DNA of 64,000 bases. It comes from Acidobacteria bacterium Ga0077551. Its GTDB lineage: Bacteria; Pseudomonadota; Alphaproteobacteria; Caulobacterales; Hyphomonadaceae. Below are positions 22,208 to 62,480 of this stretch, one piece after another. The stretch lies in the NCBI GenBank assembly GCA_001464545.1, contig LNFC01000011.1, positions 817-64,816 of the forward strand, given 5' to 3'. The translations under genes were made by a program, and so were the position numbers. Positions within the stretch are counted from its first letter, which is position 1, and each line of letters begins with the position of its first letter. The notes below the pieces were generated by a model. It searched no databases. It was not told the DNA's origin and saw nothing but the letters and a program-made list of their open reading frames with translations.

Positions 22208-24424
<2,217 letters not shown>

Positions 24425-35803: not shown

Positions 35804-36676
35804 TCAGGCGCCGGGCCGCGAGTGGGCCGACAGGTATCCTGAATCGAAGTCGGCAAGCCTGACGAGGCCGTCGCGGTCAAGGATCTCGACATTGCCGCTT
35901 CGGACATGCAGCAGCCGGGCGAGGCGCAGCTGTTTCAGAATCCGGTTCAGATGTTCGGCCGACAAGCCCAGCGCATCGGCGACGACATATTGCGAAAGCG
36001 GACATTCGTAGGCGTTCAGGAGGCCGGTGTCGCTGTCGCCCAGACGGACCGACAGTTCGAGGAAGAAATGCGCCGTGCGTTCGCGGGCGCTGCGGCGTCC
36101 GAGGCTGACAAGCCGTTCCTCGAGCATCGCATGGGCGCGGGCGTGGTCCCAGAACATGGCCCGTGCAAGCCCCGGCGCGAGCGCGAGGGCGCTGGAGAGG
36201 CGGTCGATACCGATTTCGGAAACTTCAGTATCGGTGATCGTCGACACATTGTGGCCGTGGAGAACGGCTTCGGAGGGAAATGCCTGTGCGGGCGGATACC
36301 CGATCAGATCGCCCGGGACGTATACGGACAGAATCTGGCGTGCCCCGGAGGGCAAGGACCGGTGGGCGCAGGCCCAACCCTTGTGCAGGATGAAGGCGCG
36401 TATCGAGGGCTGACCGCGGCTGACGAGTGCGGTGTTGCCGTCATAGGAGCGCTGCTGAACGATAAGCGTGGCGAGGATGCCGCGTTCCTCAGCCGAGAGG
36501 CGGCCGGCGGCGCGGCCTTCGGAAACCGTGCGAGTATGCGAGCCGTCCATTGCGCTGGCCTGTTCGACAGCGCGGTCATGGTCTTCCGGGCTGTCATCCC
36601 AAACGGCCGCGCTGCCGACCGGGCGGCGCACAGACAGCGGGCTCAGGCGCCGCGTGTTGTCCAACTCTTCAGTCAT
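35804..36676 (-). CDS. Crp/Fnr-family transcriptional regulator with ~70-aa N-terminal extension
   Basis: cNMP-binding-like barrel (ILHKGWACAH...VYVPGDLIGYP) and C-terminal HTH LSQYVVADALGLSAEHLNRILKQLR. Confidence 0.8.
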   Translation of the reverse strand: MTEELDNTRRLSPLSVRRPVGSAAVWDDSPEDHDRAVEQASAMDGSHTRTVSEGRAAGRLSAEERGILATLIVQQRSYDGNTALVSRGQPSIRAFILHKGWACAHRSLPSGARQILSVYVPGDLIGYPPAQAFPSEAVLHGHNVSTITDTEVSEIGIDRLSSALALAPGLARAMFWDHARAHAMLEERLVSLGRRSARERTAHFFLELSVRLGDSDTGLLNAYECPLSQYVVADALGLSAEHLNRILKQLRLARLLHVRSGNVEILDRDGLVRLADFDSGYLSAHSRPGA

Positions 36677-36964: not shown

Positions 36965-37116
36965 TGGCAAAGTCGAAATTATCGAGCCTGACGCATAATC
37001 TGCCGCGGCTGGAGCGGCGAGGGTCGGAATCTACTTACCGGCGACGGGTGCGGAGCCAGGCAGCGGGTCCAGGCCGGTGGAATGTCCGTATTTCCCGGGC
37101 ATGGCTTTCTCCGCAC

Positions 37117-37148: not shown

Positions 37149-37172
37149 GCGGCCGAATTGAAGGCGCCAATC

Positions 37173-40100
37173 ATGCTAGAGCCGGAAGACCCGCCCCAGA
37201 AGAATGGGCATTTGCCGGTGCTGCGCGTTGCTGAAGGCGGCAACCGCACCGAAGAGGGGGCATATGTCCCCGTCGTAGCCATCGGCGCGTCTGCAGGCGG
37301 GCTGAAGGCTTTCATCCGGCTGCTCGAAGCTGTGCCGGATCAAGCGGGCATGGCCTTCGTGCTGATCCAGCACCTGTCGCCGGACCATGAAAGCCTGATG
37401 GCCGAGTTGCTGGGCGCGCGGACCCACATGATCGTTAGCCAAATTGAAGACAAGATGCGCATCGAGCGAGATTGCGTGTACGTGAACCCTCCGGGTCAGG
37501 ACGTCTCGCTGATGGGCAACACGCTCTCGATCAGTGCCCATCCGTCTGAGCGGAATGCGCCTTTGCCCTTTGACCACTTCCTTACATCTCTTGCGCTGGA
37601 ACGCAGCGGCCGGGCGATGTGTGTCATCCTGTCCGGAACCGGGCAAGATGGCAGCAAGGGCTTGAAGGCGGTGAAACGCGCAGGCGGCTTCGTGATTGCG
37701 CAGGATCCGCAAGACGCCGAAGCCGATGGCATGCCCCGAAGCGCAATCCAGACAGGCGATGTGGACGCCATTCTGACAACCGCGCAGATACCCTTCGCCC
37801 TGATGAACTGGAATGGGCTGTCCATGGATGAGCGCCAACCGGCGGCGCATGGGCAGGATGACCGTGTTCCGGACTGGCTGCACCAGGTGATCCAGATCAT
37901 CTTTGAACGGACGGGCGCCGATTTCCGTCTCTACAAGCCGGGCACGCTGGTGCGCCGGATTGCGCGGCGCATGGCGCTGGCGACCGCCACGGCGGGAAAC
38001 GGAACGGACTATCTGAAGCTACTGCTCTCGAGCCCGCAGGAATGCGAAGCCCTGGCGGCGGATCTCTTGATCAACGTGACGCGGTTCTTCCGGGATCCGC
38101 AGGTATTCGATTTTCTCGAAGCCAGCGTGATACCGGACCTCGTGCGCAATCACCGGCTAGACCGGCCGCTGCGCATCTGGGTCGCGGGATGCAGTTCGGG
38201 CGAAGAGGCCTGGTCACTCGCCATGCTGCTGCGAGAAGCGATTGAAGCCGACGGGCGTGGCATACGCCTGCAGATTCTCGCCTCGGACATTGACCCGGAC
38301 GCCATCGCGACGGCGCGCGCAGGCATCTATGCGCCGTCGATCGCCGGCGATGTGTCTGCCGAACGGCTGGCGCGGTATTTCACGCCGGACGAACGGGGCT
38401 ACCGGATCCGTGATGACCTGCGCGCACAGGCGGTGTTCACCGTGCAGAACCTGCTGAGCGATCCTCCGTTTGCGCGGCTCGACCTGATCTCCTGCCGGAA
38501 CGTGCTGATCTATCTGGGACCGGAAGCGCAATCGAAGATCATTTCGCTGTTTCACTTCGCGCTGGTCGCCAACGGCATCCTTCTGCTGGGCACTTCCGAA
38601 ACCGGCGGCGACGTCGGCGGGCGTTTCGAGATCGTGTCGAAACCCGCGCGCGTCTATCGTCACATCGGCCGGGCACGTTCGCGCGGAACGGACGATACAA
38701 CCACACATTTCGGGCAGGACGCCGAGGGCAACCTTTTCGTGATGGACCTTGAACCTGCACCAGACCTGCGATTTGCGGATGTTTGCCGGCGGGTGGTTGC
38801 CCGGCACTATACGCCCGCATCGGTGCTGGTCACCCGGGACGGGACCTGCCTCCACTTCCTCGGTCCGGTCGATCTCTATCTGGATGTCCCGCAAGGGTCG
38901 GCATCGCTGGAAATCCTGCCGATGGTTCCGCTGTCGCACCGCGCCGTTCTGCGTGAGGCGATCATCCGCACCGGGACGGAAGAGCCGTTGATACAGATTT
39001 CCGGCCTGAAGACCTCAAAAGCGGGTAGCACGGCAGCGTTCAGCACCGATGTCCGGTTTGTGCCGGATGACGGCGATGAACTCGTGCTGATCACGTTCCA
39101 GCCCCGCGCGGAGCTGCCCGCTCCCTCTGAAGTTTCCAGCAGCGACAAAGGCAGACAAACCCTGCGGCTGGTCGAAGTGGCCGGGCTTCGCCAGGAACTG
39201 GACCATACGACCCGGCTGCTCGAACGCGCGATGGAGACCGAGCGCAAGATCCGGCGCGACTCGCTGCGGCTGAACGAAGAATATCAGTCCACGAACGAAG
39301 AGCTGGTGACCTCGAAGGAAGAGCTGCAATCGCTGAACGAGGAGCTGACGGTTCTCAACAGCCAGCTGCAGGAAGCGCTGGAGCGCCAGCGGACGACCTC
39401 GGACGACCTGAAGAACGTTCTCTACAGCACGAACGTGGCGACGCTCTTCCTTGACCGGCAGTTGTGCATCCGGTTTTTCACGCCGGCGACGAAGACCGTG
39501 TTTGGCGTGATCGCGTCGGACATCGGCCGGCCGCTGGCCGATCTGCGCTCGCTCGCGGTCGACACGCAGCTGATGGTCGAAGCCGAGGCCGTGCTGCAAT
39601 CGGCCGAGATCATCGAGCGGGAAGTCTCGACACCGGCAGGCGCCTGGTTCCTGCGCCGCATCCTGCCCTATCGCAGCCATAGCGAAACGATTGAAGGCGT
39701 CGTCATCACCTATATCGATGTGCTGGAGCAGCACAAAGCGGTGGAGGCGCTGGAGGCGGCGATCCGGCAGGCGGAGCATGCGAGCATCGCGAAGACGCGC
39801 TTTCTCGCGACCGCCAGCCATGACCTGCGTCAGCCGCTGCAGACACTCACCTTCATCCACGGGCTGCTGGCGCGCGGCGCCGTCAAGCCCGAGGCCAAGC
39901 ACCTGGTGGACCGGATCGAGCAGGCGGTGGGCGCAATGTCCGGCATGCTGAACACGATGCTGGACATCAACCAGATCGAAGCCGGCGTGATCACCTATGA
40001 GCTGGAAGACTTTCCAATTTCGGAAATCCTGTCCAGTCTGCATACCGAATATCTGTATCACGCGGAGGCGAAGTCTCTGGAGCTGCGGATGGTGCCTTCA

Positions 40101-41549
40101 AGTGCGATCATCCAGACTGATCGCCGCCTGCTGCTGCAGATGATCCGCAACCTCCTGAGCAATGCGATCCGCTATACCGATTCCGGCTGCGTGCTGATCG
40201 GCTGCCGGCGCCGCAAGGGCAGCCTTCGCATCGAGATCTGGGATACCGGGATCGGCATAGACGGCGAGGAGCTGCCGAACGTCTTCGGCGAGTATCACAA
40301 GATCAACAGCCGGGGCCGGTCACCGACCGAAGGCATGGGGCTCGGGCTGTCGATTGTCCAACGCCTCGCCGACATGCTCGGCCACCGGGTCTATGCCCGC
40401 TCGTCGCCGGGACACGGATCGATGTTCTCCATCGAGGTGCCCCTCGCCCCGGCCGTGAACGGCAAGGCGGATGACAGCCTGCAGGCGATGGATCCGGTCC
40501 TGCCGAAACGGGATGCGGCGCTGACGGCGAGCATATTGCTGGCCGAGGATGACCCCGACCTGCGCCAGCTGCTTCAGATCTTGTTGCAGCAGGACGGGCA
40601 CACGGTCGCGGCGGCCGCGGATCTGGAATCGGCGCTGCAAGTGGCCGGCAAAGGCCGCAGCGCGCCCGAATTGCTGATCGCGGACTACAACCTGCCCAAT
40701 GGGCAGAATGGTCTCGACCTGGCGCTGCAGCTGAAGCGGACCATCGCGCCGGACATGGAAGTGATCATCCTGACCGGGGACATCTCGACAGCGACACAGG
40801 TGCTGATCGCCAAGGAAGAGTTCCGGCAACTGAAGAAGCCCGTCAGCCCTGCAGAGCTTGAGGCCGAAATCCAGCTGGCCATTCAGCGCGTCCGGCTGGT
40901 GCCGCGGGTCGTTGTACCGAAAGCGGAAGTTACCGCAGGCCACGCCCAGGTCGTGATTGTCGATGATGACAGGAACTTCTGCGACTCCCTGACCGGCCTG
41001 TTGCAGGCGGACGGCCTCAAGGTGCGGTCTTTCTCGTCGGGCGAGGCTTTCCTCGCGACCCTCAGCACGCTGACGGCCGCAGACGAGCCAGTCTGCGTGC
41101 TGATTGACGCCTATCTTGGCGGCCTGAGCGGGTTTGACGTGCTCGACGCCCTACACCGGGCGAAATCGCTGGCGGCGTCCATAATGATCACCGGCAACAG
41201 CGATGTCCGCATGGCCGTAAAGGCGATGAAGGCAGGCGCACTCGACTTCATCGAGAAGCCGATCGATGTCGCAACGCTTCGGCTCGCCATCGACCAGGCG
41301 CTGGCTACCGGACGGGATTCTGCCGCCATTGTTGCGCGGCGCACAGCAGCGGCCGCACAATTGCAAAAGCTGACGGCGCGGGAGCGCGAAGTGCTCGACC
41401 GGATCCTCAGTGGTCAGCCGAACAAGAATATCGCCGCCGATCTGGGGATCAGCCAGCGCACGGTCGAGAGCCACCGCGCCTCCGTGATGATCAAGACCGG
41501 CTGCAAGACGCTACCGGCGCTCGTGAGACTGGCCGTCAGGGCGGCGTAA
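37173..41549 (+). CDS. Multidomain signalling protein: CheB methylesterase - CheR methyltransferase - PAS - coiled coil - PAS - HisKA/HATPase - REC - REC - LuxR/FixJ HTH
   Basis: CheB-like IGASAGGLKAF...QHLSPDHES. CheR-like TRFFRD, WVAGCSSGEEAWSLAMLL. Heptad segment NEEYQSTNEELVTSKEELQSLNEELTVLNSQLQ. H-box ASHDLRQPL (His codon at 39819). G-boxes DTGIGI/GLGLSIV. REC1 LLIADYNLP. REC2 VVIVDDD...VLIDAYLGG. HTH LTAREREVLDRILSGQPNKNIAADLGISQRTVESHR. Confidence 0.85.
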   Translation: MLEPEDPPQKNGHLPVLRVAEGGNRTEEGAYVPVVAIGASAGGLKAFIRLLEAVPDQAGMAFVLIQHLSPDHESLMAELLGARTHMIVSQIEDKMRIERDCVYVNPPGQDVSLMGNTLSISAHPSERNAPLPFDHFLTSLALERSGRAMCVILSGTGQDGSKGLKAVKRAGGFVIAQDPQDAEADGMPRSAIQTGDVDAILTTAQIPFALMNWNGLSMDERQPAAHGQDDRVPDWLHQVIQIIFERTGADFRLYKPGTLVRRIARRMALATATAGNGTDYLKLLLSSPQECEALAADLLINVTRFFRDPQVFDFLEASVIPDLVRNHRLDRPLRIWVAGCSSGEEAWSLAMLLREAIEADGRGIRLQILASDIDPDAIATARAGIYAPSIAGDVSAERLARYFTPDERGYRIRDDLRAQAVFTVQNLLSDPPFARLDLISCRNVLIYLGPEAQSKIISLFHFALVANGILLLGTSETGGDVGGRFEIVSKPARVYRHIGRARSRGTDDTTTHFGQDAEGNLFVMDLEPAPDLRFADVCRRVVARHYTPASVLVTRDGTCLHFLGPVDLYLDVPQGSASLEILPMVPLSHRAVLREAIIRTGTEEPLIQISGLKTSKAGSTAAFSTDVRFVPDDGDELVLITFQPRAELPAPSEVSSSDKGRQTLRLVEVAGLRQELDHTTRLLERAMETERKIRRDSLRLNEEYQSTNEELVTSKEELQSLNEELTVLNSQLQEALERQRTTSDDLKNVLYSTNVATLFLDRQLCIRFFTPATKTVFGVIASDIGRPLADLRSLAVDTQLMVEAEAVLQSAEIIEREVSTPAGAWFLRRILPYRSHSETIEGVVITYIDVLEQHKAVEALEAAIRQAEHASIAKTRFLATASHDLRQPLQTLTFIHGLLARGAVKPEAKHLVDRIEQAVGAMSGMLNTMLDINQIEAGVITYELEDFPISEILSSLHTEYLYHAEAKSLELRMVPSSAIIQTDRRLLLQMIRNLLSNAIRYTDSGCVLIGCRRRKGSLRIEIWDTGIGIDGEELPNVFGEYHKINSRGRSPTEGMGLGLSIVQRLADMLGHRVYARSSPGHGSMFSIEVPLAPAVNGKADDSLQAMDPVLPKRDAALTASILLAEDDPDLRQLLQILLQQDGHTVAAAADLESALQVAGKGRSAPELLIADYNLPNGQNGLDLALQLKRTIAPDMEVIILTGDISTATQVLIAKEEFRQLKKPVSPAELEAEIQLAIQRVRLVPRVVVPKAEVTAGHAQVVIVDDDRNFCDSLTGLLQADGLKVRSFSSGEAFLATLSTLTAADEPVCVLIDAYLGGLSGFDVLDALHRAKSLAASIMITGNSDVRMAVKAMKAGALDFIEKPIDVATLRLAIDQALATGRDSAAIVARRTAAAAQLQKLTAREREVLDRILSGQPNKNIAADLGISQRTVESHRASVMIKTGCKTLPALVRLAVRAA

Positions 41550-41977: not shown

Positions 41978-42769
41978 CTACGCGGTCCGCAGTCTCGGAA
42001 TGTACGGCTCGGCGTCATTTGAAAGCATGCCGTGCACTGAACTGCCCGGCGCTTTTGCGACGAGGGCGGCGACCTGCTGCATCAGGTCACCCATGGCATC
42101 CCGGGCACTCAGGCTTGTATCCGTGCTGTAGCTGGCCTGGTTCTCTGACAACAAGACCGTCAGACGAAAACGTGCCCGCGAAACCCGGCTTTTGACGGTT
42201 CCCGTCGCGCACCCACAGACCTTCGCTGCTTCGATGTAACTCATGCCGCCTGCACCGACCAGCAGAAGCGCTTCACGCTGATCGACAGGCAGCAGCGCGA
42301 TCAGGTTACGGAGCGCGAGCAAGTCGAGTTCGTCGCCGCTTTCAGTCCCGCTCGCCGGCATCTCCGACATCGCATCATCCGCAAGCGGCAGCATCCGCCA
42401 GCTTCGGCGCTTGTAGGAAAAGAAAACGTTGCGGAGGATCGTGGTGCACCAGGCTTTCAGGTTTGTGCCCGGCTGAAAGCGGTCGCGGGCCATCCATGCA
42501 TTCAGGAGCGTATCCTGAAGCAGGTCATCCGCAAGGCTGGCATTGCTGCACAGGCTGAGGGCGTAACGCCTCAACTGGGTCAGCTCCCGCACCAAGGCTT
42601 CCTGAAAATCCGTATCCGGAACTTCACGCGGAAGTGTTGGAAAACGATCCGAGAAGGGCGTGACGACCGGACGCGCCCTTGGTAGCAAGACCGCAACGTC
42701 GGACGCCCTCGCACCAGACACAGGCCGGTACTTTGGAACTATACGCACAGTAGATTCAATTGCGCTCAT
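41978..42769 (-). CDS. ECF sigma factor, EcfG paralogue (SigU-like), no adjacent NepR
   Basis: Regions 2 and 4 are near-identical in pattern to the EcfG at 51804..52406 (LRNVFFSYKRRSWR vs LRNVFYSEKRRSWR; LLVGAGGMSYIEAAKVCGCATGTVKSRVSRAR vs ILVGAGGMAYEEAAQIIGCAVGTIKSRVSRAR). ATG 42769 has a GGAGGG RBS. The start is uncertain (ORF open to 42853). Confidence 0.75.
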   Translation of the reverse strand: MSAIESTVRIVPKYRPVSGARASDVAVLLPRARPVVTPFSDRFPTLPREVPDTDFQEALVRELTQLRRYALSLCSNASLADDLLQDTLLNAWMARDRFQPGTNLKAWCTTILRNVFFSYKRRSWRMLPLADDAMSEMPASGTESGDELDLLALRNLIALLPVDQREALLLVGAGGMSYIEAAKVCGCATGTVKSRVSRARFRLTVLLSENQASYSTDTSLSARDAMGDLMQQVAALVAKAPGSSVHGMLSNDAEPYIPRLRTA

Positions 42770-44391: not shown

Positions 44392-45261
44392 ATGGGACGC
44401 GAACAGTCCAGCGCCACGCCAAAAGGGCCACGGCGCCACACCCCTCCGGCCGAAGCCACCCGCAACCTCCGGCTTGCTGCAGACTTCCATGCTGCCTACC
44501 CGCCCGAGCTAACCGGCGACGGAGTACTTGTTCCCGGGCCGTTCGGCCTGAAACTGGAACGTTATGCGCTCCAAGGCGGCCGGCCGCCCCGTTCAATCCG
44601 TTCACTGATGGCCCACAAGCGCACTTTCGAGCCCGGCGTACAAGTGATGCAGCAAGGCGATGCCGGCGGCGTCGCCTATATCATCGAGCAGGGATGGACC
44701 TTTTCGAGCAGTGTCCTGCGCAACGGCTCGCGGCAGATACTGGACGTCCAGGTGCCCGGAGATGTTGCCGGCCTGCAGAGCCTGCCCGTTCCCACCGCCG
44801 CCAACGATGTGACCGCTATCACCAAGGTGCATGCTTTCGAAATCCAGCTTGATGCTGTCATGGATGCCATCTCGTCAGACGCCGACCTCGCGGCCTTCAT
44901 CTTCTGGCTCGCAGCCCGGCAGAATGATGTCGCCTCCGTGCGGATCATCGATATCGGCCGGCGCACCTCGGTCGAGCGGGTGGCGCATTTCATCCTGGAG
45001 CTGGCCACTCGCCTGCGGCTGGCCGGGATCGGAACAGACTCCGGATTCCCCTGCCCGCTCACGCAATACCTGCTGGGTGACGCGCTCGGCCTGACATCGG
45101 TGCATGTGAACCGGGTCTTGAGGGATCTGCGCACGTCGGGTCTGGCGCATCATCAACGTGGCTGGATCAGCCTGCTAAATGCCAGTGAGCTGAGCGCTGT
45201 CGCCGGGTTCAGCAGCGCCTATCTGCGCGGTACGGGTACTGGGTGTACGGACGCAATGTGA
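44392..45261 (+). CDS. Crp/Fnr-family transcriptional regulator (paralogue of 35804..36676) with N-terminal extension
   Basis: GVAYIIEQGWTFSS...VQVPGDVAGLQS barrel and HTH LTQYLLGDALGLTSVHVNRVLRDLR. ATG 44392 is preferred over TTG 44380. Confidence 0.8.
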   Translation: MGREQSSATPKGPRRHTPPAEATRNLRLAADFHAAYPPELTGDGVLVPGPFGLKLERYALQGGRPPRSIRSLMAHKRTFEPGVQVMQQGDAGGVAYIIEQGWTFSSSVLRNGSRQILDVQVPGDVAGLQSLPVPTAANDVTAITKVHAFEIQLDAVMDAISSDADLAAFIFWLAARQNDVASVRIIDIGRRTSVERVAHFILELATRLRLAGIGTDSGFPCPLTQYLLGDALGLTSVHVNRVLRDLRTSGLAHHQRGWISLLNASELSAVAGFSSAYLRGTGTGCTDAM

Positions 45262-49827: not shown

Positions 49828-49852
49828 GGAACCTCGATCAACGCACCGCGTT
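49828..49852 (+). promoter_or_regulatory. EcfG-type (general stress response) promoter GGAAC-N16-CGTT
   Basis: Exact match: GGAAC 49828..49832 and CGTT 49849..49852. It ends 53 nt before the entericidin-like start. Confidence 0.6.
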
Positions 49853-49904: not shown

Positions 49905-50057
49905 ATGAAGGTCAAATTCGCCGTTCCCGCCATGGCGCTTGCCGCCATGCTTCTGGCTGCGTGCAACACTGTCGATGGCGTCGGCAAGGACGTTGAAGCC
50001 GCCGGCGAAGGAATCCAGGAGGGCTCCGAAGCCGTCGAGGAAGATCTCAAAGATTAA
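49905..50057 (+). CDS. Entericidin A/B-family small lipoprotein
   Basis: MKVKFAVPAMALAAMLLAACNTVDGVGKDVEAAGEGIQ with lipobox LAAC. AAGGAGAG RBS. Confidence 0.8.
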   Translation: MKVKFAVPAMALAAMLLAACNTVDGVGKDVEAAGEGIQEGSEAVEEDLKD

Positions 50058-50127: not shown

Positions 50128-51804
50128 TCACTGCTCGATTGGAAATGTCAGCTCAATGATGACATTGTCGGGGTCGTCTCCGAGATCTTCGACCGCGCCG
50201 CCCATCTGACGCGCGAAGGCGGCGAGGAACAGGTTCGTATCCCGCGACCTCGTTGCCTCGTCACTCGCGGTGGGTTCCCGGCCGCAACTCATGCGGAGAC
50301 GCGCGTGGCCGTTCTCCTGCCGGAACTCAAGGCTCAGGTCCCGGATGACGCCGCTGTCGCCTGTCGCGGGGCACAGATGATCGAACGCTTCCTGCACGAA
50401 CATCGCCATCGGAACGGCAAGGTCTGACGGGAGGGACACATCCTCGACGTCGGGCACAAGATGCCGGCTCTCTTCTTCCCAGCCTTGCCGCTCATGGATC
50501 TGCTTGCAGATCGCGTCGAACAATTCCGACGCATCCACGGTTTCAATGTGCGATTCGTTGAGCAGCGAATGATGCACGGCCGCCATCATGGCGACGCGCT
50601 GGGCGGCGAGGCGCAGGGCCACCTGGGTCTCCGGTTGGACCTCGCTGCGGCCCTGCAGTTTCAGCATGCTGAGCATGACCTGAAGGTTGTTCTTGACGCG
50701 GTGATGCGTCTCGCGGAAGGCGCCCTTCATGCGGGCGAGGGCCTGCAGCAGGTCGGATTCGTGAACCTTCACGCTCTCTGTCAGATCGTCAAAGGCGCGG
50801 GCGAGTTGCTGAAGCTCTGCCGGGGCCCGCGCGAGATCGTCTGCCAGCGGCGTGTATTCGGCCGAGCGGCGAAGGTCCGAAATCCGAAGCCGCAAGCGTT
50901 CGATCCAGCGAAGCACCAGCGTGTCCATGATCCACGTGGCGGTCAGCAGGGCGGCCAGGAACGCCAGAACGGGGATCGTCAGTGCAACGACGGTCTCGAT
51001 CCGCGAATTCCGGGGCGTGGATGAAGGCGTGAGGATCCACAGGCTATCGGTCGCGAGCGGCATTACGACCACGTCAACGCGCCCGCCCTGGGGCAAACGA
51101 AGCTGGCGCGCGGTGCGCTCCAGGATGGCCTCGCTGGTCAACCACCCAACCGGTATGCGCTCGACGATCCCGGATCCCAGCACATCCCCGTCGACCAGCA
51201 CGATGCCCTGCCGCAATCCTGGCGAGGCGGTCTCCGGCAGGCTCTTTGCCAGCTGCTCAATGCTGACGGTCACGGCGACCGAGCCTTCAAATTCTCCGGC
51301 GTCATTTGCGACGCCTTGGAGCATCCAGATGACGGGGTCGCCCAAGGCCAGTCCGTCGAAGCGGGACGATTCGATGGTCTTCATGCCTCTTCGGAGCTGA
51401 TCGTTCCATCCAAGGTCGGGCATGGGCTGGCCGACGAGATTCTCGCCAGCGAAAAAGCACGTCACCTGCCCTTCGGCATTGAACCGAAAGACGTTGCGAA
51501 AGGGAAGATTGAGGCCTGAAAGACGATTGCTGATTTGTGTGCAGGTCGGTTTGCGTTCGTCGACTGCCATCAGGCTCAAGGCGAGGCGCGTGCCGGCGAG
51601 AACCGTGTCGACTCCGGATTGGCCTTCACGCGAGGTCTCCACCAGTTCCTGGTATTTTGCCTGTCTGGCTTCTTCGCGTTCGCCGCTGACACGCATGGCG
51701 CCGAGCACCAGCAGCGGGCTGAGCGCAAGCGCCATTGCGCCGATGACCTGCCAGCGCAGACTCATCCTCAGCGGCGCCGGCCCCCTCGCGATCTCCTCGT
51801 TCAT
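50128..51804 (-). CDS. GSR-associated HisKA_2-type sensor histidine kinase (PhyK/PhyP-like), two TM segments flanking a periplasmic domain
   Basis: H-box THHRVKNNLQVMLSMLKLQ. TM helices VIGAMALALSPLLVLGAM and LTIPVLAFLAALLTATWIM. The start ATG shares one base with the ecfG stop (TGATG). Confidence 0.8.
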   Translation of the reverse strand: MNEEIARGPAPLRMSLRWQVIGAMALALSPLLVLGAMRVSGEREEARQAKYQELVETSREGQSGVDTVLAGTRLALSLMAVDERKPTCTQISNRLSGLNLPFRNVFRFNAEGQVTCFFAGENLVGQPMPDLGWNDQLRRGMKTIESSRFDGLALGDPVIWMLQGVANDAGEFEGSVAVTVSIEQLAKSLPETASPGLRQGIVLVDGDVLGSGIVERIPVGWLTSEAILERTARQLRLPQGGRVDVVVMPLATDSLWILTPSSTPRNSRIETVVALTIPVLAFLAALLTATWIMDTLVLRWIERLRLRISDLRRSAEYTPLADDLARAPAELQQLARAFDDLTESVKVHESDLLQALARMKGAFRETHHRVKNNLQVMLSMLKLQGRSEVQPETQVALRLAAQRVAMMAAVHHSLLNESHIETVDASELFDAICKQIHERQGWEEESRHLVPDVEDVSLPSDLAVPMAMFVQEAFDHLCPATGDSGVIRDLSLEFRQENGHARLRMSCGREPTASDEATRSRDTNLFLAAFARQMGGAVEDLGDDPDNVIIELTFPIEQ

Positions 51805-52406
51805 CAGCTTTCCCGGCTCAGAGCGCTGACTTGGTCCATGATGTTGTTGAACGCCGCCTTGCCGGACGTGATGGCGGGCGCGCCGGCCAGGGCCTTGGGC
51901 GCCTTGTCGCCGCCCAGCATTTCTCCGAGTGCCTTGCGGGCGCGGCTGACGCGGCTCTTGATGGTGCCGACGGCGCAACCGATGATCTGGGCGGCTTCTT
52001 CGTAAGCCATGCCGCCGGCGCCCACGAGGATGATCGCTTCGCGCTGGTCGTCGGGCAGATGATCGAGCGCATTGCGCAGTTCGACCAGTTCCATCCCCTT
52101 GCTCGGATCATCCGACGCCACGAGCGTGCGCTCGGCCATCTCGGGAGACAGTTCTGTGGAGCGCCACGAGCGGCGCTTTTCGGAATAGAAGACGTTGCGA
52201 AGGATCGTAAAGGTCCAGGCGCGGAAGCTGGTGGTCGGCGTGAAGCTGTCGCGCGCCTTCCAGGCCCGCAGCATCGTGTCCTGAACCAGGTCGTCCGCGG
52301 CCACGGCGTCGTTGCACAGGCTGCGCGCGAAGGCGCGCAGGTGCGGCACCATTTCCAGGAGGGCTGCCTTGAACTCGCTGGCCGGGAGCGGGAGCGGCGC
52401 TGTCAT
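51804..52406 (-). CDS. ecfG: ECF sigma factor EcfG (general stress response)
   Basis: Sigma regions 2 and 4 are recognisable. It lies immediately downstream of and overlapping nepR (ATGA), and divergent from phyR. Confidence 0.85.
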   Translation of the reverse strand: MTAPLPLPASEFKAALLEMVPHLRAFARSLCNDAVAADDLVQDTMLRAWKARDSFTPTTSFRAWTFTILRNVFYSEKRRSWRSTELSPEMAERTLVASDDPSKGMELVELRNALDHLPDDQREAIILVGAGGMAYEEAAQIIGCAVGTIKSRVSRARKALGEMLGGDKAPKALAGAPAITSGKAAFNNIMDQVSALSRES

Positions 52407-52612
52407 GAGGCGCCGGTTTCAGGCTGACCGGACTCGCTGCGCTCGGCCGCCTCAGCTTCTTCCAGCAGTTTCAGGAACTCGTCCGGAATGGACTCGTCCA
52501 CGACGCCTTCGTACATCTGGCGCAAACGTTCACCGATCGCCCGGTTGCCAAGGCGCCGCTGGCTCTTAGGACCATCGGACGGACCCCCTTCGGGCTTTCT
52601 GGTATCGCTCAT
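52403..52612 (-). CDS. nepR: Anti-sigma factor NepR
   Basis: 69 aa. IGERLRQMYEGVVDESIPDEFLKLLEE matches the NepR core pattern. Position is upstream of ecfG. Confidence 0.85.
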   Translation of the reverse strand: MSDTRKPEGGPSDGPKSQRRLGNRAIGERLRQMYEGVVDESIPDEFLKLLEEAEAAERSESGQPETGAS

Positions 52613-52686
52613 CGCACCACCTTAAATTCGGGTCACCTGGCGGAATAACCAGTTTCTCAAGCCAATTTTGCCATATTCAGGCCAAT

Positions 52687-52711
52687 AACGCATCAGCGCA
52701 GAACGAGTTCC
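52687..52711 (-). promoter_or_regulatory. EcfG-type promoter for nepR-ecfG-kinase (GGAAC-N16-CGTT on the minus strand)
   Basis: The + strand reads AACG (52687..52690)-N16-GTTCC (52707..52711), 75 nt upstream of the nepR start. Confidence 0.65.
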
Positions 52712-52751
52712 CTGCGTTGCTGCTGATTTCGAAAATAATTTCAGATCGGGT

Positions 52752-52776
52752 GAAACCAATCTCGATGAGGGGCGTT
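52752..52776 (+). promoter_or_regulatory. EcfG-type promoter for phyR (GAAAC-N16-CGTT)
   Basis: One mismatch in the -35 element. CGTT at 52773..52776 lies 32 nt before ATG 52808. Confidence 0.55.
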
Positions 52777-52807
52777 GTTACGCATGTACACGCAGGAGGT
52801 TCCCTAG

Positions 52808-53599
52808 ATGTCGATGATTGCACAATTCCGTCCCCATCTGCCGTTCTTGAGGCGATATGCGCGCGCGCTCACGGGCACGCAGCAAAGCGGTGACGCCTAC
52901 ATTCTCGCGAGTCTCGAAGCCATGAAAGAGGCCCCCGGCCAGATCGTCGAGGCCTCTACGGCGCGCGTCACGCTATACCAGTTCTTCCATGCCATCTGGT
53001 CAACCACCGGCGCGCATCTCGAAACGGGAGCGAAAGCAGCAATGGCCTCGCCCGAGGCGCGGCTTCGCAAGCTGGCACCGATCGAACGGCAGGCTTTTCT
53101 CCTGACGACCCTTGAGGGCTTCACGCGTTCGGAAGCCTGCGAGATTCTCGGCAAAAGCAAAGGTGAACTGGAAGCGCTTCTTGATGCCGCGCACCGCGAG
53201 ATCGAGAAACAGCTGACGACTTCGGTGCTGATCATCGAGGACGAGCCTATCATTGCGGCAGATCTCGCGCACCTTGTGGAAGATCTTGGCCACAAGTTCG
53301 CGGGCGGCGCAGCGACGCGGCGGGCGGCCGTGGAAATGGCGAAACGCCTGAAGCCGGGCCTTATCCTGTGCGATGTTCAGTTGGCGGACAATTCGTCGGG
53401 CATCGACGCCGTGCAGGACATCCTCGAAGAGATGGACGTTCCAGTGATCTTCATCACCGCGTTTCCCGAGCGCCTGCTGACCGGCGAGCGGCCGGAGCCG
53501 ACCTATCTGATCACGAAGCCATTCCAGGACGATACGGTGAAGGCCGCCATCAGCCAGGCCTTGTTCTTTGGAACAGAAGCGGCCGTCGAGGAGATCTGA
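52808..53599 (+). CDS. phyR: Anti-anti-sigma response regulator PhyR (sigma-like domain + receiver)
   Basis: [23 protein letters not shown] sigma-like N-terminus. C-terminal receiver VLIIEDEPI...[14 protein letters not shown]...KPF. Confidence 0.9.
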
Positions 53600-53613
53600 C
53601 GCGCAATTTGTTT

Positions 53614-53638
53614 GGAACGTTACCAAATGAGCGGCGTT
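53614..53638 (+). promoter_or_regulatory. EcfG-type promoter GGAAC-N16-CGTT
   Basis: Exact match, ending 51 nt before the DUF1328 start codon. Confidence 0.6.
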
Positions 53639-53688
53639 GTATCTTCGTAGACTGCCTGAATGGTCGGGCACAGAAAATGGAGGCACAC

Positions 53689-53862
53689 ATGCTCGGTTGG
53701 GCACTTACATTTTTCGTTCTGGCGATCATCGCTGCTTTGCTCGGTTTCGGCGGCATCGCCGGCGCCGCTGCAGGCATCGCACAATTCCTGTTCGTCGTAT
53801 TCCTCGTCCTTCTCGTGGTCACCTTCATTGTCCGCGCACTCCGAGGACGGAGCATAACCTGA
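53689..53862 (+). CDS. DUF1328 (UPF0391) small membrane protein
   Basis: [52 protein letters not shown] 5 nt upstream. Confidence 0.8.
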
Positions 53863-53952
53863 ATTTCCCAGCGGCCCCTCCCCCTCCTGCAAACCGCTGA
53901 GGAACCGGCGCCGGCCAAGCTTCCCCCCCACGTACGTTTGGCCGCGCGCCGA

Positions 53953-53988
53953 CCGCCATCCAGTCAACCTGGATGGCGGTTTCGCTTT
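53953..53988 (+). terminator. Rho-independent terminator after the DUF1328 gene
   Basis: Perfect 11-bp stem CCGCCATCCAG-tcaac-CTGGATGGCGG followed by TTTCGCTTT. Confidence 0.8.
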
Positions 53989-54005
53989 GAGCGGATGTCT
54001 GGAAA

Positions 54006-55181
54006 TCAGTCGTGTGGTGGACGGTGCGGCACTGAAAAGGTCACGACGAGACGGCCGTTTTCGATCACGCGGTCCATCGTTCCGCCTGCGGACAAGACGA
54101 GCCGGCGCATGACGTGCAGGCCGGTATGCGTCGATGACGCCTGCTCGGTGTCATCAAGGTCGACACGGTCCACGCCTTCGGTCCAGACGAGCCTAAGCCA
54201 GCTGTCCTTGAGTTCGCCCTCGCAGTGGACCGCGTCGCCGGCGCGCAAGGCGCCGTACTTGAGCGAATTCGTGGTCAGCTCTCCAATCACGACAGCGATG
54301 ATCCGCATGCCGGATTCATCGATGCGGCAATCCGGAAGGAGAGAAACATCGAAGGTCTCGGCACTGACGCCTGCTGCGCTGACGAGATCAGAGATGAGTT
54401 CGCGCAATGGAAAATCCTGCGCAACGTCGACCAGCTTTGCCTGGGCAACGGCGAGAGACGAAAAGCGATTGACGAGCGCCTCGGCAAAAGACTGGTGCTC
54501 GGGCGCCGTGCGCGCACTTATCTTGGTGATCGCACTGGAGATGGCGAACGCATTCTTGAGGCGGTGACGCATTTCAAGGGCGATCGTTTCATACATCTTC
54601 CGGTTGGTGACGGTTTCGGTGACGTCCTTCGACACGACAAGGAGACGGATGACGTGCCCGGAAGCGTCGGTCACCGGCGAGATGCGTACATCCCACCATT
54701 TGGGCGTGCCCTGAGCGGTCGGGCAAAATCCGCGGAAGTCCCAGAGCTTGCCCGCGGCGGCGCTGGTGTTCGCTTCACGGACGGCAGCTTCGGCCTCTGC
54801 GGGCCAGATGTCCCACCAATAGCGCCCCAAGACATCTTCAGCGCCGGCCATCTGCCGCACCAGCAGGCCTGCGCGGTTGATGTAAAGCACGCGCCCTTCG
54901 GGATCGAGCAGCTTTATGCAATCGCGGCTGTTGTCGAGCATCGCGGTCAGCACGGCGTCCATGACGTCGGGGCCGGATGGAAGCATGCCTTGGAATTCCG
55001 AGGACCGGAACATCTGTACATACCTTTCACTACCAGGATCGCCGGTCAGGGCGTGTCCCGGGACCTCCATAGAACTACCAGAGTGTGACGCCAGGGCCAA
55101 TGCCCGGTATGCGAGTGGTACCCCACCGGGCCGCAGATGCCGCTTTTTAGGCCTGACGGGCGGCACCTTCCCTTGCGCCAT
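54006..55181 (-). CDS. PAS domain-containing HWE-family sensor histidine kinase (cytoplasmic)
   Basis: H-box EMRHRLKNAFAISSAITKI with an upstream PAS region (DCIKLLDPEGRVLYINRAG). The start is uncertain: ATG 55181 (GAAGGA RBS), 55070 or 55013, and the ORF is open to 55208. Confidence 0.75.
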   Translation of the reverse strand: MAQGKVPPVRPKKRHLRPGGVPLAYRALALASHSGSSMEVPGHALTGDPGSERYVQMFRSSEFQGMLPSGPDVMDAVLTAMLDNSRDCIKLLDPEGRVLYINRAGLLVRQMAGAEDVLGRYWWDIWPAEAEAAVREANTSAAAGKLWDFRGFCPTAQGTPKWWDVRISPVTDASGHVIRLLVVSKDVTETVTNRKMYETIALEMRHRLKNAFAISSAITKISARTAPEHQSFAEALVNRFSSLAVAQAKLVDVAQDFPLRELISDLVSAAGVSAETFDVSLLPDCRIDESGMRIIAVVIGELTTNSLKYGALRAGDAVHCEGELKDSWLRLVWTEGVDRVDLDDTEQASSTHTGLHVMRRLVLSAGGTMDRVIENGRLVVTFSVPHRPPHD

Positions 55182-55242
55182 TGTTCCTTCGGTTTGTGTT
55201 GTGTGCAAGATCGGTCAAAACACAAACTTGCCGGGGAGAGAC

Positions 55243-59350: not shown

Positions 59351-59552
59351 GTCGGGCCTCCCTGTTCGATCTGGCCGCGCGGGGCGCTGCCAATCCGTCT
59401 GTTTGATTGCCGCCAACTTTGAGGTGCTGGAAGGCGAGGTCAATCCATTCCGCGAAGTCACCCCGCCGCCGGTCGACGCACCGCGCCTCGACTTGCCCGG
59501 CATCGCCGCATAGGCTGAATTCAAAGCATTGTGGGAGGTTGGCGGGCGCAAC

Positions 59553-62480
59553 ATGGCGGACGAAGCGAGGACTTACCGCGCCTTCATCAGCTATTCCCAG
59601 CAAGACAAGCTGTGGGGCAAACGCCTGCATGGCTGGCTTGAGAGCTATCGTCTGCCGGCCGGCACCACGGCCCGCGTGCCCGCCGGCGAGCGGCTCGGCC
59701 GCTTTTTCCGCGATGATGAGGAGATGGCGGCAGCCTCCAACATCGCCAGCATCGTCGAGAAATCCATCGACGAATCGGAAAGCATGATCGTCATCTGCTC
59801 GCCGCGCTCCGCCAAATCCCAATGGGTCGCCTCAGAAATCGAACGGTTCCGGCGCCGGGGCCGGGACGGCAAGGTTTTCGCGTTCATCATCGACGGCGTT
59901 CCAAACTCGGGGGACCCCGAAACCGAGTGCTTCCCCCCTGCCCTTCGCCGCAGTGCCAATCCGGACAATCCGAACGATCTGCCGATCGAGCCTCTGGGGC
60001 TGGATATCCGCAAGGATGGCCGGGACCGCGCCGTGGCGCGTCTGGCAGCGGGACTGCTGGATGCCGACTTCGACGATCTCTGGCAGCGGGACCGGCGGCG
60101 CGATGAATCGCGACTGCGCCAATTGATCCTTGGGCTGACGGTGCTGAGCTCCGTGTTTGCCTTGCTGGCGGCGACAGCAGTCTTCATGGGCCTTCAGGCC
60201 CGGCAGAACGAGCGGATCGCACACGACAATCTCGCGGCATTCTTTGCCGAGCGGGCCTGGCAGAACCTGGACCGCGAAAACCCGCTGGCGGCCGCGCGGT
60301 ACGCCCTAGCGGGGCGGCAACTGTCGGAAACGAACGCGCGAAGCTACCATGCCGTTCTGGGCGCCGTCATGTTTGATGCCGGCGAGACATTGCCGCCCCT
60401 GTTACACGACGGGGCCATCCTGAGCGGCGTCTACGCCCCGGACGGCCGGACCGTCGTCACAACCAGCCAGGACACGGCCGCAAAAATCTGGGCTGCAGAC
60501 ACCGGCACACTGATTTCTACACTGACCGGCCATACAGACCGTGTCGGCGCTGCCGCCTTCTCACCAAATGGCGCGCGGCTCGCCACAGCCAGCAATGACG
60601 GCAGCGCCATCGTCTGGGATATCAAAAATATCAGCGTCGTGGCCCGCCTTACGGGGCACGAACAGGCTCTTCAGACGATAGAGTTTTCGCCAGATGGCCT
60701 CACCGTGCTCACGGCCAGCCGGGATGGAACTGCGCGCATCTGGAATGCCGCAACCGGCGCCGTGGTTCACCAACTCGGCACACCGGGTGACGCCGTCTGG
60801 ACGGCTAGGTATTCAGGTGACGGTCAACGGATCGTGACGTCGCATGAAGATGGCAAGGCGCGGATCTGGAGCGTGGCGGATGGTCGTTTGATCAGGACAC
60901 TGACGGGGCATACTGGCGCGATTTATGGCGCATCGTTTTCACCGGACGCGTCCCGGATCGTCACGGCCAGCTTCGACCAGACCGCCCGTATCTGGAACGC
61001 GGCGAACGGCAGAACATTGGCCACGCTTGAGGGGCATACGGACAGCGTGCTGACCGGCGTTTTCTCGCCTGATGGGAAGACAGTCGCCACAGCCAGCGGC
61101 GACTCCACCGCGCGCCTCTGGGATGCTCGGACCGGCCGTCTGAAATCCATACTGACCGGGCATAAGGGAACCGTCCGCACCGCGACATTCTCAGCGGATG
61201 GCGAATGGCTTCTGACCATCAGCAACGATGCCACTTCCAAACTCTGGAGCGCCGCTACGGGAGAGCTGTCGAGAACCTTGCTGGGCCATGCTGAACGCAT
61301 CCGGATGGGCGTGTTCTCGCCCAACGGCCAGCAGATCCTGACCGCGAGCGACGACGGCACAGCGAAGATCTGGCGGGCCCGGGGGCGGCTGCTCTCGAGC
61401 TTTGCCGTCGGTGAAGACGCTGTGGCCTTCGCGGAGCTTTCGCGCGACGGCGCCTACCTGGTCACGGCGGGTCAGGACGACACGGTGCAGGTCTGGGACG
61501 CGGAGACGGCCAAGCGCCTTGCGATTCTGACGGAGCACACGGGCGATGTTTACGGCGTCGCCTTTTCGCCCGATGCATCGCATGTCGTCACCGCCAGCCA
61601 AGATGGTACCAGCAAGATCTGGGACTGGAAAACCGGAAAGGTTACCGCGACGCTGGTTGGACATCAGGGACCTGTCACCAGCGCATCCTATTCGCGGCAA
61701 GGCGACCGGATTGTTACCGCCAGTGAAGACACCACCGCCAGGGTATGGGACGCAGCGACCGGGAAGATCCTGTTCACATTGGCCGCGGAAGGCGACACCG
61801 TGCGAGGCGCGGAATTCTCACCCGATGGCACGCTGATCGTGACCGCCGGTCGCGACCGGATCGCGCGCATCTGGAGCGCCGTGGACGGATCAATGCTGGG
61901 CATGCTCGAAGGCCATACCGGCAGCATCGGGTCGGCGGCGTTTTCGCCGGATGGCAAACGCATCGTGACCGGCAGCGCGGATGGAACAGCCCGGGTCTGG
62001 GACACAACGGATCGCCGCGTGGTGGCAACCCTGACCGCCCTCAAGGGCATTGTCTCGACTGTCCAGTTCTCCCCTGACGGCGAGCGCATCGCGACGGCAA
62101 ACCTCGATCAGACGGCCAACATCTGGGACGCTGAAGATGGCCGCCTGCTGACGACCTTGCCCGGGTTTGGAAGCGAGGTGCGCAGTGCGACATTCTCCGC
62201 CGACGGATCGCGGATCGTTGCGGCCAGTAGCGACGGGACGATCCGCATCTGGGATGTTTCCCGCCTGACGCAGGACTGGGACACCCTTGCGGCAGGCGCC
62301 TGCACCTACCTGCTCAGTGCCGCCAGCCGCGAGTTTTCCCGGCTGGAGATAGAAACGGACCAGCTTCTCGGCTCCGAGTGGCCGGATGCGTCGCGAGATG
62401 TGTGTTCGGGCGCACAGCGCACGCCAACCATTTCGGAGCTTTACGCAGCCGCAGGCATCGAACGGCATGCCCGCGACTGA
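59553..62480 (+). CDS. TIR domain - single TM helix - 15x WD40-repeat protein
   Basis: N-terminal TIR pattern YRAFISYSQQD...MIVICSPRSAKSQWVASEIERF...FAFIIDG. TM helix LILGLTVLSSVFALLAATAVFMGL (60123..60194). Fifteen 42-aa blades of pattern GHxxxVxxAxFSPDGxxIVTASxDxTARIWDxxxGxxLxTL. Confidence 0.85.
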   Translation: MADEARTYRAFISYSQQDKLWGKRLHGWLESYRLPAGTTARVPAGERLGRFFRDDEEMAAASNIASIVEKSIDESESMIVICSPRSAKSQWVASEIERFRRRGRDGKVFAFIIDGVPNSGDPETECFPPALRRSANPDNPNDLPIEPLGLDIRKDGRDRAVARLAAGLLDADFDDLWQRDRRRDESRLRQLILGLTVLSSVFALLAATAVFMGLQARQNERIAHDNLAAFFAERAWQNLDRENPLAAARYALAGRQLSETNARSYHAVLGAVMFDAGETLPPLLHDGAILSGVYAPDGRTVVTTSQDTAAKIWAADTGTLISTLTGHTDRVGAAAFSPNGARLATASNDGSAIVWDIKNISVVARLTGHEQALQTIEFSPDGLTVLTASRDGTARIWNAATGAVVHQLGTPGDAVWTARYSGDGQRIVTSHEDGKARIWSVADGRLIRTLTGHTGAIYGASFSPDASRIVTASFDQTARIWNAANGRTLATLEGHTDSVLTGVFSPDGKTVATASGDSTARLWDARTGRLKSILTGHKGTVRTATFSADGEWLLTISNDATSKLWSAATGELSRTLLGHAERIRMGVFSPNGQQILTASDDGTAKIWRARGRLLSSFAVGEDAVAFAELSRDGAYLVTAGQDDTVQVWDAETAKRLAILTEHTGDVYGVAFSPDASHVVTASQDGTSKIWDWKTGKVTATLVGHQGPVTSASYSRQGDRIVTASEDTTARVWDAATGKILFTLAAEGDTVRGAEFSPDGTLIVTAGRDRIARIWSAVDGSMLGMLEGHTGSIGSAAFSPDGKRIVTGSADGTARVWDTTDRRVVATLTALKGIVSTVQFSPDGERIATANLDQTANIWDAEDGRLLTTLPGFGSEVRSATFSADGSRIVAASSDGTIRIWDVSRLTQDWDTLAAGACTYLLSAASREFSRLEIETDQLLGSEWPDASRDVCSGAQRTPTISELYAAAGIERHARD
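60400..62267 (+). repeat. Tandem 126-nt coding repeats (15 WD40 blades)
   Basis: Periodic FSPDG / TAS.DGTARIW units counted by eye in the translation. Confidence 0.8.

Follow-up and report, generated by a model that had tools for sequence, protein, structure and literature searches.

We analyzed a 64,000-nucleotide stretch of contig LNFC01000011.1 (hereafter the window), from an assembly placed in the alphaproteobacterial family Hyphomonadaceae, and followed up one gene in it. This gene (37173..41549, +) is complete, with 1458 codons and a stop, and encodes in a single chain a CheB domain, a CheR domain, a PAS-like fold, a long helix, a PAS_10 domain, a histidine kinase (HK) core made up of a HisKA and a HATPase domain, two receivers (REC) and a LuxR-type helix-turn-helix (HTH). 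The protein is an intact member of a widespread alphaproteobacterial family of single-chain regulators and may combine self-methylation with a FixJ-type output to DNA.

The fusion gene and its domains

Translation of the window gave a stop-free open reading frame (ORF) at 37158..41549 (+), within which the ATG at 37173, with a GAAGG Shine-Dalgarno-like sequence upstream, yields a protein of 1458 amino acids (aa). The identical protein was read on five contigs, representing two distinct places and at least two samples (a Joint Genome Institute (JGI) metagenome and a Logan run), and the JGI metagenome contig of 67,958 bp carried it among the same neighbor genes. A homologue search over 5.8 billion proteins, clustered at the 90% identity level, returned at least 120 clusters of 1307–1579 aa (most 1430–1490) that were 49–92% identical to the query and all had the same Pfam families, including GerE. 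Because the identical protein occurs on other contigs and at least 120 homologue clusters share its architecture, the 1458-aa fusion is real and an artefact is unlikely; a frameshift or assembly error was rejected on the same grounds, as independent contigs agree and full-length homologues are abundant. An Rfam search near the gene found no known RNA family.

A first-pass annotation, made from the DNA letters alone, had proposed a single uninterrupted 1458-aa frame with this domain order. The frame held, with no stop, the same protein in separate assemblies and homologue clusters of equal length, and a Pfam scan recovered CheB_methylest, CheR_N, CheR, PAS_10, HisKA, HATPase_c, two Response_reg domains and GerE in the order claimed; the PAS and helix region was supported by AlphaFold2, whose model showed a PAS-type fold in the first PAS-like region. 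All earlier sub-coordinates were correct, including the His codon at 39819 (H883), D1171 within the motif LLIADYNLP, and the positions of the second receiver and the HTH. No split ORF and no degenerate catalytic or phospho-acceptor residue, either of which the annotation had regarded as fatal to its proposal, was found: the catalytic residues of CheB and CheR and the phospho-acceptor Asp residues were intact, and invariant or near-invariant when 20 and then 60 homologues of 49–92% identity were aligned.

The CheB-type methylesterase/deamidase catalytic domain spans aa 35–207 (37275..37793, +; Pfam CheB_methylest, 177 bits) and, by Pfam, has no counterpart of the N-terminal receiver found in canonical CheB. 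Its triad of S40 (GASAGG), H67 (QHL) and D159 (SGTGxDG) was invariant in the 20 homologues and 90–100% conserved in the 60, and Foldseek matched this region to 3sft and 1chd. The CheR methyltransferase follows at aa 238–490 (37884..38642, +), with CheR_N at aa 238–287 (32 bits) and CheR at aa 301–490 (172 bits). Its N-terminal helical domain has an Arg-rich helix, RRxxRR (261–266), followed by the S-adenosylmethionine (SAM)-binding domain; the motifs TxFFRD, WxAGCSxGEE, ASDID and SCRNxxIYL were invariant in the 20 homologues, the Arg-rich helix was also kept, and Foldseek matched the region to 1af7, 1bc5 and 5ftw. With the triad, the SAM-binding domain and the order CheB then CheR, the fused enzymes are by sequence of the type catalogued as K13924.

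The histidine kinase core (39789..40448, +) comprises HisKA at aa 873–938, with H883 in ASHDLRQPL, and HATPase_c at aa 983–1092, with N, G1 and G2 boxes. Receiver 1, at aa ~1118–1238 (40524..40886, +), has E1125, D1126, D1171, T1201 and K1222, and the FixJ-like receiver 2, at aa ~1258–1378 (40944..41306, +), has D1264–D1266, D1312, T1340 and K1362; both matched Pfam Response_reg, and the key residues of both were invariant or nearly so in the two alignments. The hybrid-kinase hallmarks (H883, N993/N997, DTGIG, GLGLGL, D1171 and K1222) were invariant in the 20 homologues. For aa 868–1234 the nearest NCBIfam model was NahK/ErcS (NF041832) at 364.4 bits, below its cutoff of 400 and thus a resemblance only. 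Receiver 1 was also considered as a CheB-type receiver, for which a PDB search gave generic receiver matches only.

Pfam recognized no domain in the first PAS-like region at aa ~530–645 (38760..39107, +), which was delimited by its AlphaFold2 fold and by tandem-PAS Foldseek matches. The AlphaFold2 model covers aa 1–870, with a mean predicted local distance difference test (pLDDT) of 75.8 and a predicted template modeling score (pTM) of 0.34, so that single domains are taken as reliable and their mutual arrangement is not. In it, the first fold has helices at 530–545 and 587–599 and strands at 549–554, 558–563, 606–614, 620–632 and 635–644, with a mean pLDDT of 72–88 in most 10-residue blocks. 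A single continuous helix of 94 residues, aa 657–750 (39141..39422, +), is predicted to form a coiled coil joining both PAS folds, with a pLDDT of 90–93 across aa 691–730. PAS_10, at aa 746–850 (39408..39722, +), was found by Pfam (84 bits against a cutoff of 22) and in the model, where it is followed by a helix running into the kinase. Foldseek matched the PAS-helix-PAS stretch to tandem-PAS proteins, including DosP, the FixL PAS pair and PpsR N-Q-PAS1. The PAS-like fold, long helix and PAS_10 followed the enzymes collinearly in the homologue loci whose contig spans all three (a few begin within CheR). No membrane segment was recognizable, as Pfam gave no periplasmic-sensor or membrane-domain family and the model of aa 1–870 contained soluble folds only; by sequence, the family members are soluble single-polypeptide two-component regulators.

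Family distribution and the Glu-Glu helix

The named homologues are labeled 'chemotaxis protein CheB' or 'CheB/CheR fusion protein' and come from Hyphomonas, Pannonibacter, Bosea, Bradyrhizobium, Methylovirgula, Roseiarcus, Stellaceae and Hypericibacter; the whole gene was also collinear in fetched loci of Rhodopila, Sphingomonadales, Acetobacteraceae, Parvibaculum and others. The REC-LuxR part was fused in every examined alphaproteobacterial orthologue locus whose contig reaches that far, and a split version in close relatives, with a shorter kinase and a separate REC-LuxR gene, was sought and not found in the loci examined. The first-pass annotation had presented the appended DNA-binding regulator as the distinguishing feature of this protein. 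That emphasis was unwarranted because all 120 best homologue clusters have REC-LuxR.

The N-terminal part of the protein is far more widespread than this output. A search with the PAS-helix-PAS module (aa 521–859) against 1.84 billion cluster representatives found 14,628 representatives at E ≤ 1e-3 and 3,696 at E ≤ 1e-30. We took a domain census of the best 149 of the 50%-identity representatives of this module: 21 had the full HK-REC-REC-HTH architecture, to which about ten N-terminally truncated entries can be added, 15 had a kinase only, 10 had HK-REC, eight had the block alone with nothing after it, and the remainder had other or unrecognized C-termini. A scan of one genome per species placed the CheB-CheR-module block, among the matches listed, in the majority of bacterial phyla and in the methanogens Methanosarcina and Methanolobus, as well as in Bacteroidales, Porphyromonas and Flavobacteriaceae metagenome-assembled genomes (MAGs); the closest relative among those matches had ~51% identity. 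The five-part N-terminal block is, on this sequence evidence, an evolutionary unit with an exchangeable output. In three loci from other phyla (L054, L032 and L018), two or three CheB-CheR-module genes lie side by side, with three module copies in L054 (a Proteobacteria MAG) and an extra CheB domain in L018, which indicates paralogue expansion. The arrangement itself is no discovery: the parts are known, the fusion is common and the family is catalogued. Our literature search found no functional study of the CheB/CheR fusion family, and cheBR or K13924 were mentioned at annotation level only.

Outside the catalytic sites, the strongest conservation lies in a stretch of the inter-PAS helix. Here aa 701–735 (39273..39377, +) form the candidate methyl-accepting heptads NEEYQST NEELVTS KEELQSL NEELTVL NSQLQEA, which follow the pattern N/K-E-E-L-x-S/T-x in four copies (up to six in relatives) and contain the Glu pairs E702/E703, E709/E710, E716/E717 and E723/E724, followed by Q731. 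We computed heptad conservation over 144 representatives of 50%-identity clusters from several phyla. Position a was Asn or Lys in 59–100%, position b was Glu in 81–99% (93–99% in the four central heptads) and position c was Glu in 78–99% (97–99% in the central four), while position d was Leu, Phe or Tyr in the central heptads and position f was Ser, Thr or Ala. The heptad after the central four reads N-S-Q, with Ser-Gln in place of Glu-Glu, and its third residue was Gln in 88% and Glu in 10%; the N-terminal half of the same helix was poorly conserved. In a coiled coil, positions b and c point to the solvent and are normally the most variable ones. The interchange of Gln and Glu at the position of Q731 recalls those receptor sites at which CheB acts as a deamidase.

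In methyl-accepting chemotaxis proteins (MCPs), methylation follows the consensus E-E-x-x-S/T-S/T, with Tsr sites 297, 304 and 311 spaced by seven residues (PMC1079850). The segments EEYQST, EELVTS, EELQSL and EELTVL, at the same seven-residue spacing, fit this consensus as a match at motif level only (PMC1079850). Pfam, probe and profile searches found no MCP signaling (hairpin) domain in the protein, and sequence homology of the PAS-helix-PAS module or of the helix profile to solved chemoreceptors was rejected, as the PDB gave generic coiled coils. The Glu-Glu helix is a plausible built-in substrate of the fused CheR and CheB. It would be their likeliest substrate because the enzymes always co-occur with the helix, the Arg-rich substrate-binding helix of CheR is kept and no chemoreceptor gene lies nearby, and because the N-terminal block is inherited whole while the C-terminal output varies, a substrate within that block would be expected. 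The conserved heptads lend support to self-modification, which the first-pass annotation had raised as a possibility.

FixJ-like output, candidate operator and genomic surroundings

The LuxR/GerE-type HTH lies at aa 1399–1454 (41367..41534, +; Pfam GerE, 59 bits against a cutoff of 23.5) and was invariant or nearly so in the 20- and 60-homologue alignments. In an alignment to the FixJ C-domain (1x3u), its recognition helix, ISQRTVESHRASVM, closely resembles the FixJ counterpart, ISPRTVEVHRANVM. The best PDB match of REC2-HTH was full-length FixJ (5xso, E = 1.4e-32), followed by StyR and the FixJ C-domain, and for aa 1257–1457 the nearest NCBIfam model was the FixJ equivalog NF006900, at 198.6 bits and below its cutoff of 255. 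The C-terminus has the acidic pocket, Asp, Thr and Lys of a receiver together with a GerE/LuxR HTH, as in NarL/FixJ-type regulators; by sequence, this module is FixJ-like, and we do not file it as FixJ.

Alignment of the regions upstream of the window gene and of two Hyphomonas homologues, whose upstream neighbors differ, revealed a conserved TCGGAATCTAC, which extended to an 18-bp non-palindromic box, AGnnTCGGAAWCTACyyA, with flanks that are not conserved. Allowing up to 2 mismatches, we found 46 copies in 15 alphaproteobacterial gene-carrying loci (311 kb), against 1.5 in shuffles (~30-fold enrichment), and 6 copies in 1.0 Mb of loci from other phyla. Nine of the 15 loci have a copy ~95–160 nt upstream of the gene and in the same orientation, and where gene calls were available 13 of 16 copies were intergenic, often adjoining small stress genes. 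In the window, the divergent promoter region has an exact FixJ-type box, AGGGTCGGAATCTACTTA (reverse complement TAAGTAGATTCCGACCCT), at 37020..37037 (+), 136 nt upstream of the ATG. A weaker box with 2 mismatches, AGTCTCGGAATGTACGGC, lies at 41991..42008 (+), within the 3' end of an EcfG-like sigma gene and ~80 nt upstream of a DUF883-like gene, and its position is kept in two Hyphomonas homologue loci (L082 and L084); at up to 2 mismatches no further copy occurs in the 64-kb window.

Read as its reverse complement, GTAGWTTCCGA, the box matches the FixJ consensus obtained by systematic evolution of ligands by exponential enrichment (SELEX), GTAGTTTCCC, and the reverse complement of the window's exact box resembles the FixJ site of the fixK promoter, TAAGTAATTTCCCTTA (PMC4999443). 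The box at 37020..37037 is thus a good candidate operator of the protein's own HTH, and such an operator would therefore imply autoregulation and a local regulon. A reading of the box as a promoter for an extracytoplasmic function (ECF) sigma factor was rejected, as the flanks have no conserved −10/−35 partner and its orientation to neighbor genes varies. Three homologue loci (L004, L005 and L086) have dense boxes, with 7 copies per 20 kb at up to 2 mismatches, mostly intergenic and in varying orientation by small genes (BON, YflT, RMF and unnamed ORFs of 70–120 aa), which suggests a local regulon there.

Divergent from the fusion gene, a 47-aa DUF5670 gene (−) and a Crp/FNR-family gene (35804–36676, −) lie upstream, with, still further upstream, genes for a Usp protein (+) and, to judge from a faint Pfam hit, possibly a cytochrome c (+). 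Downstream, the EcfG-like ECF sigma gene (41978–42769, −), with matches to Sigma70_r2, r4_2 and PhyR_sigma2, has no adjacent NepR gene; DUF883-like, DUF4398 and OmpA-family genes and a second Crp/FNR-family gene (44392–45261, +) are also found on this side. The downstream block is kept in Hyphomonas homologues of 65–77% identity, in two of which the EcfG-like gene also adjoins the CheB/CheR kinase gene, and homologues of ~50% identity sit amid CsbD, BON, YflT, RMF, Gly-zipper and HWE-kinase genes. Annotation of the ORFs thus agrees with the stress-gene setting beside an orphan EcfG-like sigma factor that had been described from the letters alone. Scans of the major ORFs by Pfam, probe and profile likewise agree with the earlier remark that no MCP or other che gene is visible: no MCP, CheA or CheW was found in the major ORFs of the window or in the flanks of four homologue loci. 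A cascade from FixJ to FixK through the flanking Crp genes is unsupported because the window lacks a FixK/FNR box (TTGAT-N4-ATCAA, up to 1 mismatch).

A complete core locus of the general stress response lies at 50131–55208, ~9–10 kb downstream of the gene end, with a HisKA_2 kinase (50131–51978, −), ecfG (51807–52406, −), nepR (52406–52612, −), phyR (52808–53596, +) and a PAS-HWE kinase (54009–55208, −), and with GGAAC-N-CGTT motifs upstream of nepR-ecfG (52687–52711, −) and at 53614–53638 (+). Another EcfG-type promoter motif, GGAACCTCGATCAACGCACCGCGTT, at 49828–49852, precedes by ~50 nt a 50-aa entericidin-family gene (49905–50057), which is probably a member of the general stress regulon. 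Elsewhere in the window, a 983-aa protein (59529–62477, +) consists mostly of WD40 repeats (at least nine), a large size for a WD40 protein from bacteria. Two ORFs lie upstream of the stress-gene region: one of 731 aa (22211–24403, −), which has two domains of the peroxidase family (PF00141) and probably encodes a catalase-peroxidase of KatG type, and one for a GAF-GGDEF diguanylate cyclase (17815–18900, −). The first 2000 nucleotides (1–2000) have 72% G+C against ~63% elsewhere and contain a 367-aa ORF without a Pfam match (614–1714, −), and three tRNA genes lie at 2380–2451, 3713–3785 and 4065–4135.

Proposed mechanism, alternatives and meaning

All enzymatic and phospho-acceptor residues are conserved, and from these sequences we infer the following sequence of events. 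The protein would dimerize through its long Asn-ladder coiled coil and the dimerization and histidine phosphotransfer (DHp) helices. A cytoplasmic cue received by the two PAS folds would set kinase activity at H883, the kinase would phosphorylate the FixJ-like receiver at D1312, and the LuxR-type HTH would then bind FixJ-type boxes, one upstream of its own gene and others by small stress genes. The fused CheR would methylate the solvent-exposed Glu pairs on the inter-PAS coiled coil; the fused CheB would demethylate them and may deamidate Q731. Methylation would shift the charge and packing of the helix and so reset kinase output, like chemoreceptor adaptation or memory, but within one transcription-regulating protein. 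Receiver 1 (D1171), which has no histidine phosphotransfer (HPt) partner, could be either a sink for phosphate or the feedback receiver that is part of canonical CheB but absent from this CheB domain. We give this account as a whole, that of an intact member of a widespread family with self-methylation and a FixJ-type output, a probability of about 0.45.

Several known systems share parts of this arrangement. Proteins annotated by KEGG and JGI as K13924 'CheB/CheR fusion protein' (Pfam CheB_methylest, CheR_N, CheR and PAS_10) have the same N-terminal block in the same order, with the conserved helix, and the branch in the window adds HK-REC-REC-LuxR to this family, which is known as an annotation. 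Chemoreceptor adaptation by an MCP, CheR and CheB uses the same two enzymes, whose active-site residues are intact here, and the helix resembles the region around Tsr 297/304/311 in having Glu-Glu every seven residues, an E-E-x-x-S/T-S/T context and one Gln at an equivalent position. Unlike the chemoreceptor system, the protein has no MCP signaling domain, CheA or CheW, its enzymes and their putative substrate lie in one chain, its CheB has no receiver and its predicted output is transcription and not motility. As in FixL/FixJ, a PAS-containing kinase meets a FixJ-like REC-HTH, with a FixJ-type box nearby and Crp/FNR-family genes flanking; unlike FixL/FixJ, kinase and regulator are fused, the REC-HTH scores below the FixJ equivalog cutoff, the kinase core is a generic HisKA hybrid and not FixL-like, no haem-PAS signature was seen, and there are no FixK/FNR boxes in the window.

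In Bacteroides, hybrid two-component systems (HTCS) join a kinase and a DNA-binding response regulator in one polypeptide (PMC11253607), as this protein does. HTCS differ in that they sit in the membrane and have a periplasmic sensor for glycans, a single receiver and an HTH of the AraC type; the protein studied here has two receivers, an HTH of the LuxR type and the CheB/CheR block, and no membrane segment is recognizable in it. A genomic neighbor is the general stress response of alphaproteobacteria (PhyR-NepR-EcfG), and distant homologues also lie among stress-regulon genes; unlike that system, the protein has no PhyR sigma-like domain, NepR or HWE/HisKA_2 kinase, and no GGAAC-N16–17-CGTT motif lies upstream.

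Several points weigh against the proposed mechanism, whose support is computational. The likeness of the helix to MCP sites is at motif level, Glu-rich heptads are frequent in coiled coils, and the PDB matches of the helix profile were all generic or designed coiled coils, with no chemoreceptor among them; with a pTM of 0.34, whether the helix reaches the CheR and CheB active sites is not derivable from the model. A separate, canonical FixJ or some other regulator could bind the box, our view being limited to the 64-kb window, and no EcfG promoter (GGAAC-N15–18-CGTT) lies upstream of the fusion gene, the six matches in the window being elsewhere. No Hpt domain was found in the protein and no Hpt gene in the scanned window ORFs or in the flanks of four homologue loci, and because no HPt domain lies between the two receivers the phosphoryl group could take more than one path among H883, D1171 and D1312. 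Members of the NahK/ErcS family signal through a separate Hpt protein. By analogy with one-polypeptide HTCS, direct transfer from H883 to D1312 would be the simplest reading, leaving receiver 1 as a sink or as the feedback receiver missing from the CheB domain; a relay through an unlinked Hpt is possible. The 'closed circuit' from methylation input to transcription, which the first-pass annotation had put forward as a candidate, is plausible, but was not borne out as stated.

The alternatives differ mainly in what the enzymes act on and in where the phosphoryl group goes. There may be no closed circuit at all, with H883 feeding only receiver 1 and then a free Hpt, receiver 2 fed by that Hpt or by another kinase, and the helix a mere signaling or dimerization linker. 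The affinity of HK-REC1 for the NahK/ErcS hybrid-kinase model (364 bits), the HPt step that classical hybrid kinases require and the resemblance of the helix to the PAS-Q-linker-PAS of PpsR and other tandem-PAS proteins all favor this; it nevertheless seems unlikely, as no Hpt was found within the searched scope, REC2-HTH is fused in every alphaproteobacterial orthologue locus reaching that far with no split version, and a plain linker would not need exposed Glu-Glu in 93–99% of sequences. HTCS also show that intramolecular signaling from kinase to response regulator works (PMC11253607). We consider it rather improbable that the CheB and CheR domains act in trans on chemoreceptors encoded elsewhere, either to link receptor methylation to transcription or as an extra adaptation enzyme. 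Their catalytic and substrate-binding motifs are indistinguishable from those of canonical CheB and CheR, and the nearest named relatives are Hyphomonas, which have flagellated swarmer cells; yet neither the window nor the four homologue loci have an MCP or che gene in the neighborhood, and however the output varies, the enzymes are always joined to the PAS-helix-PAS block. This block is also present in MAGs of Bacteroidales, Porphyromonas and Flavobacteriaceae, groups that to our knowledge generally lack chemotaxis genes.

Methylation could instead target the acidic pockets of the receivers (E1125/D1126 or D1264–D1266) and block phosphorylation. Both receivers keep these acidic pairs, and Salmonella offers a precedent: there the response regulator PhoP receives a methyl group from CheR at R112 and has further ones at E8/D9 and E107/E108, with those at E8/D9 added by an enzyme yet to be identified (PMC8546571). 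A receiver cannot be the general substrate because many block members have none (the 15 HK-only and eight module-only entries among the 149 representatives), and the top conservation outside the catalytic sites is in the helix and not at extra receiver surfaces, so that we find this explanation very unlikely. Least probable is that the CheB and CheR domains have degenerated or work as sensors of a ligand such as SAM or S-adenosylhomocysteine, and not as enzymes. The CheB domain does lack its usual regulatory receiver, but the Ser-His-Asp triad and the SAM and substrate motifs are invariant in distant homologues, as expected of active enzymes.

In textbooks, chemotaxis adapts through the reversible methylation of glutamates, whose accepted targets are essentially chemoreceptors. 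Should the helix be the substrate, as the self-methylation mechanism proposes, methylation-based adaptation would also work in ordinary two-component systems that regulate genes. The likely logic, to judge from the sequences and undescribed in the literature we found, is that chemotaxis-type methylation enzymes act on a conserved Glu-Glu helix within a two-component protein that regulates transcription and whose own gene has a FixJ-type operator. More tentatively, and with the balance of probability somewhat against it, the Asn-ladder coiled coil may be a true methyl-accepting segment and the family one of 'methyl-accepting histidine kinases', single proteins with their own CheR/CheB adaptation loop, here ending on a FixJ-type operator upstream of the gene itself. 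The family is very common and has gone without a functional study that we could find. In one compact, soluble system, input, memory, kinase and DNA output would lie in a single chain, whose predicted sites and operator are directly testable. If the methyl-accepting reading is true, memory and adaptation so far known from chemotaxis only would reach transcription control and, with the module spread over more than 14,000 bacterial and archaeal sequence clusters, would constitute a large unrecognized signaling principle.

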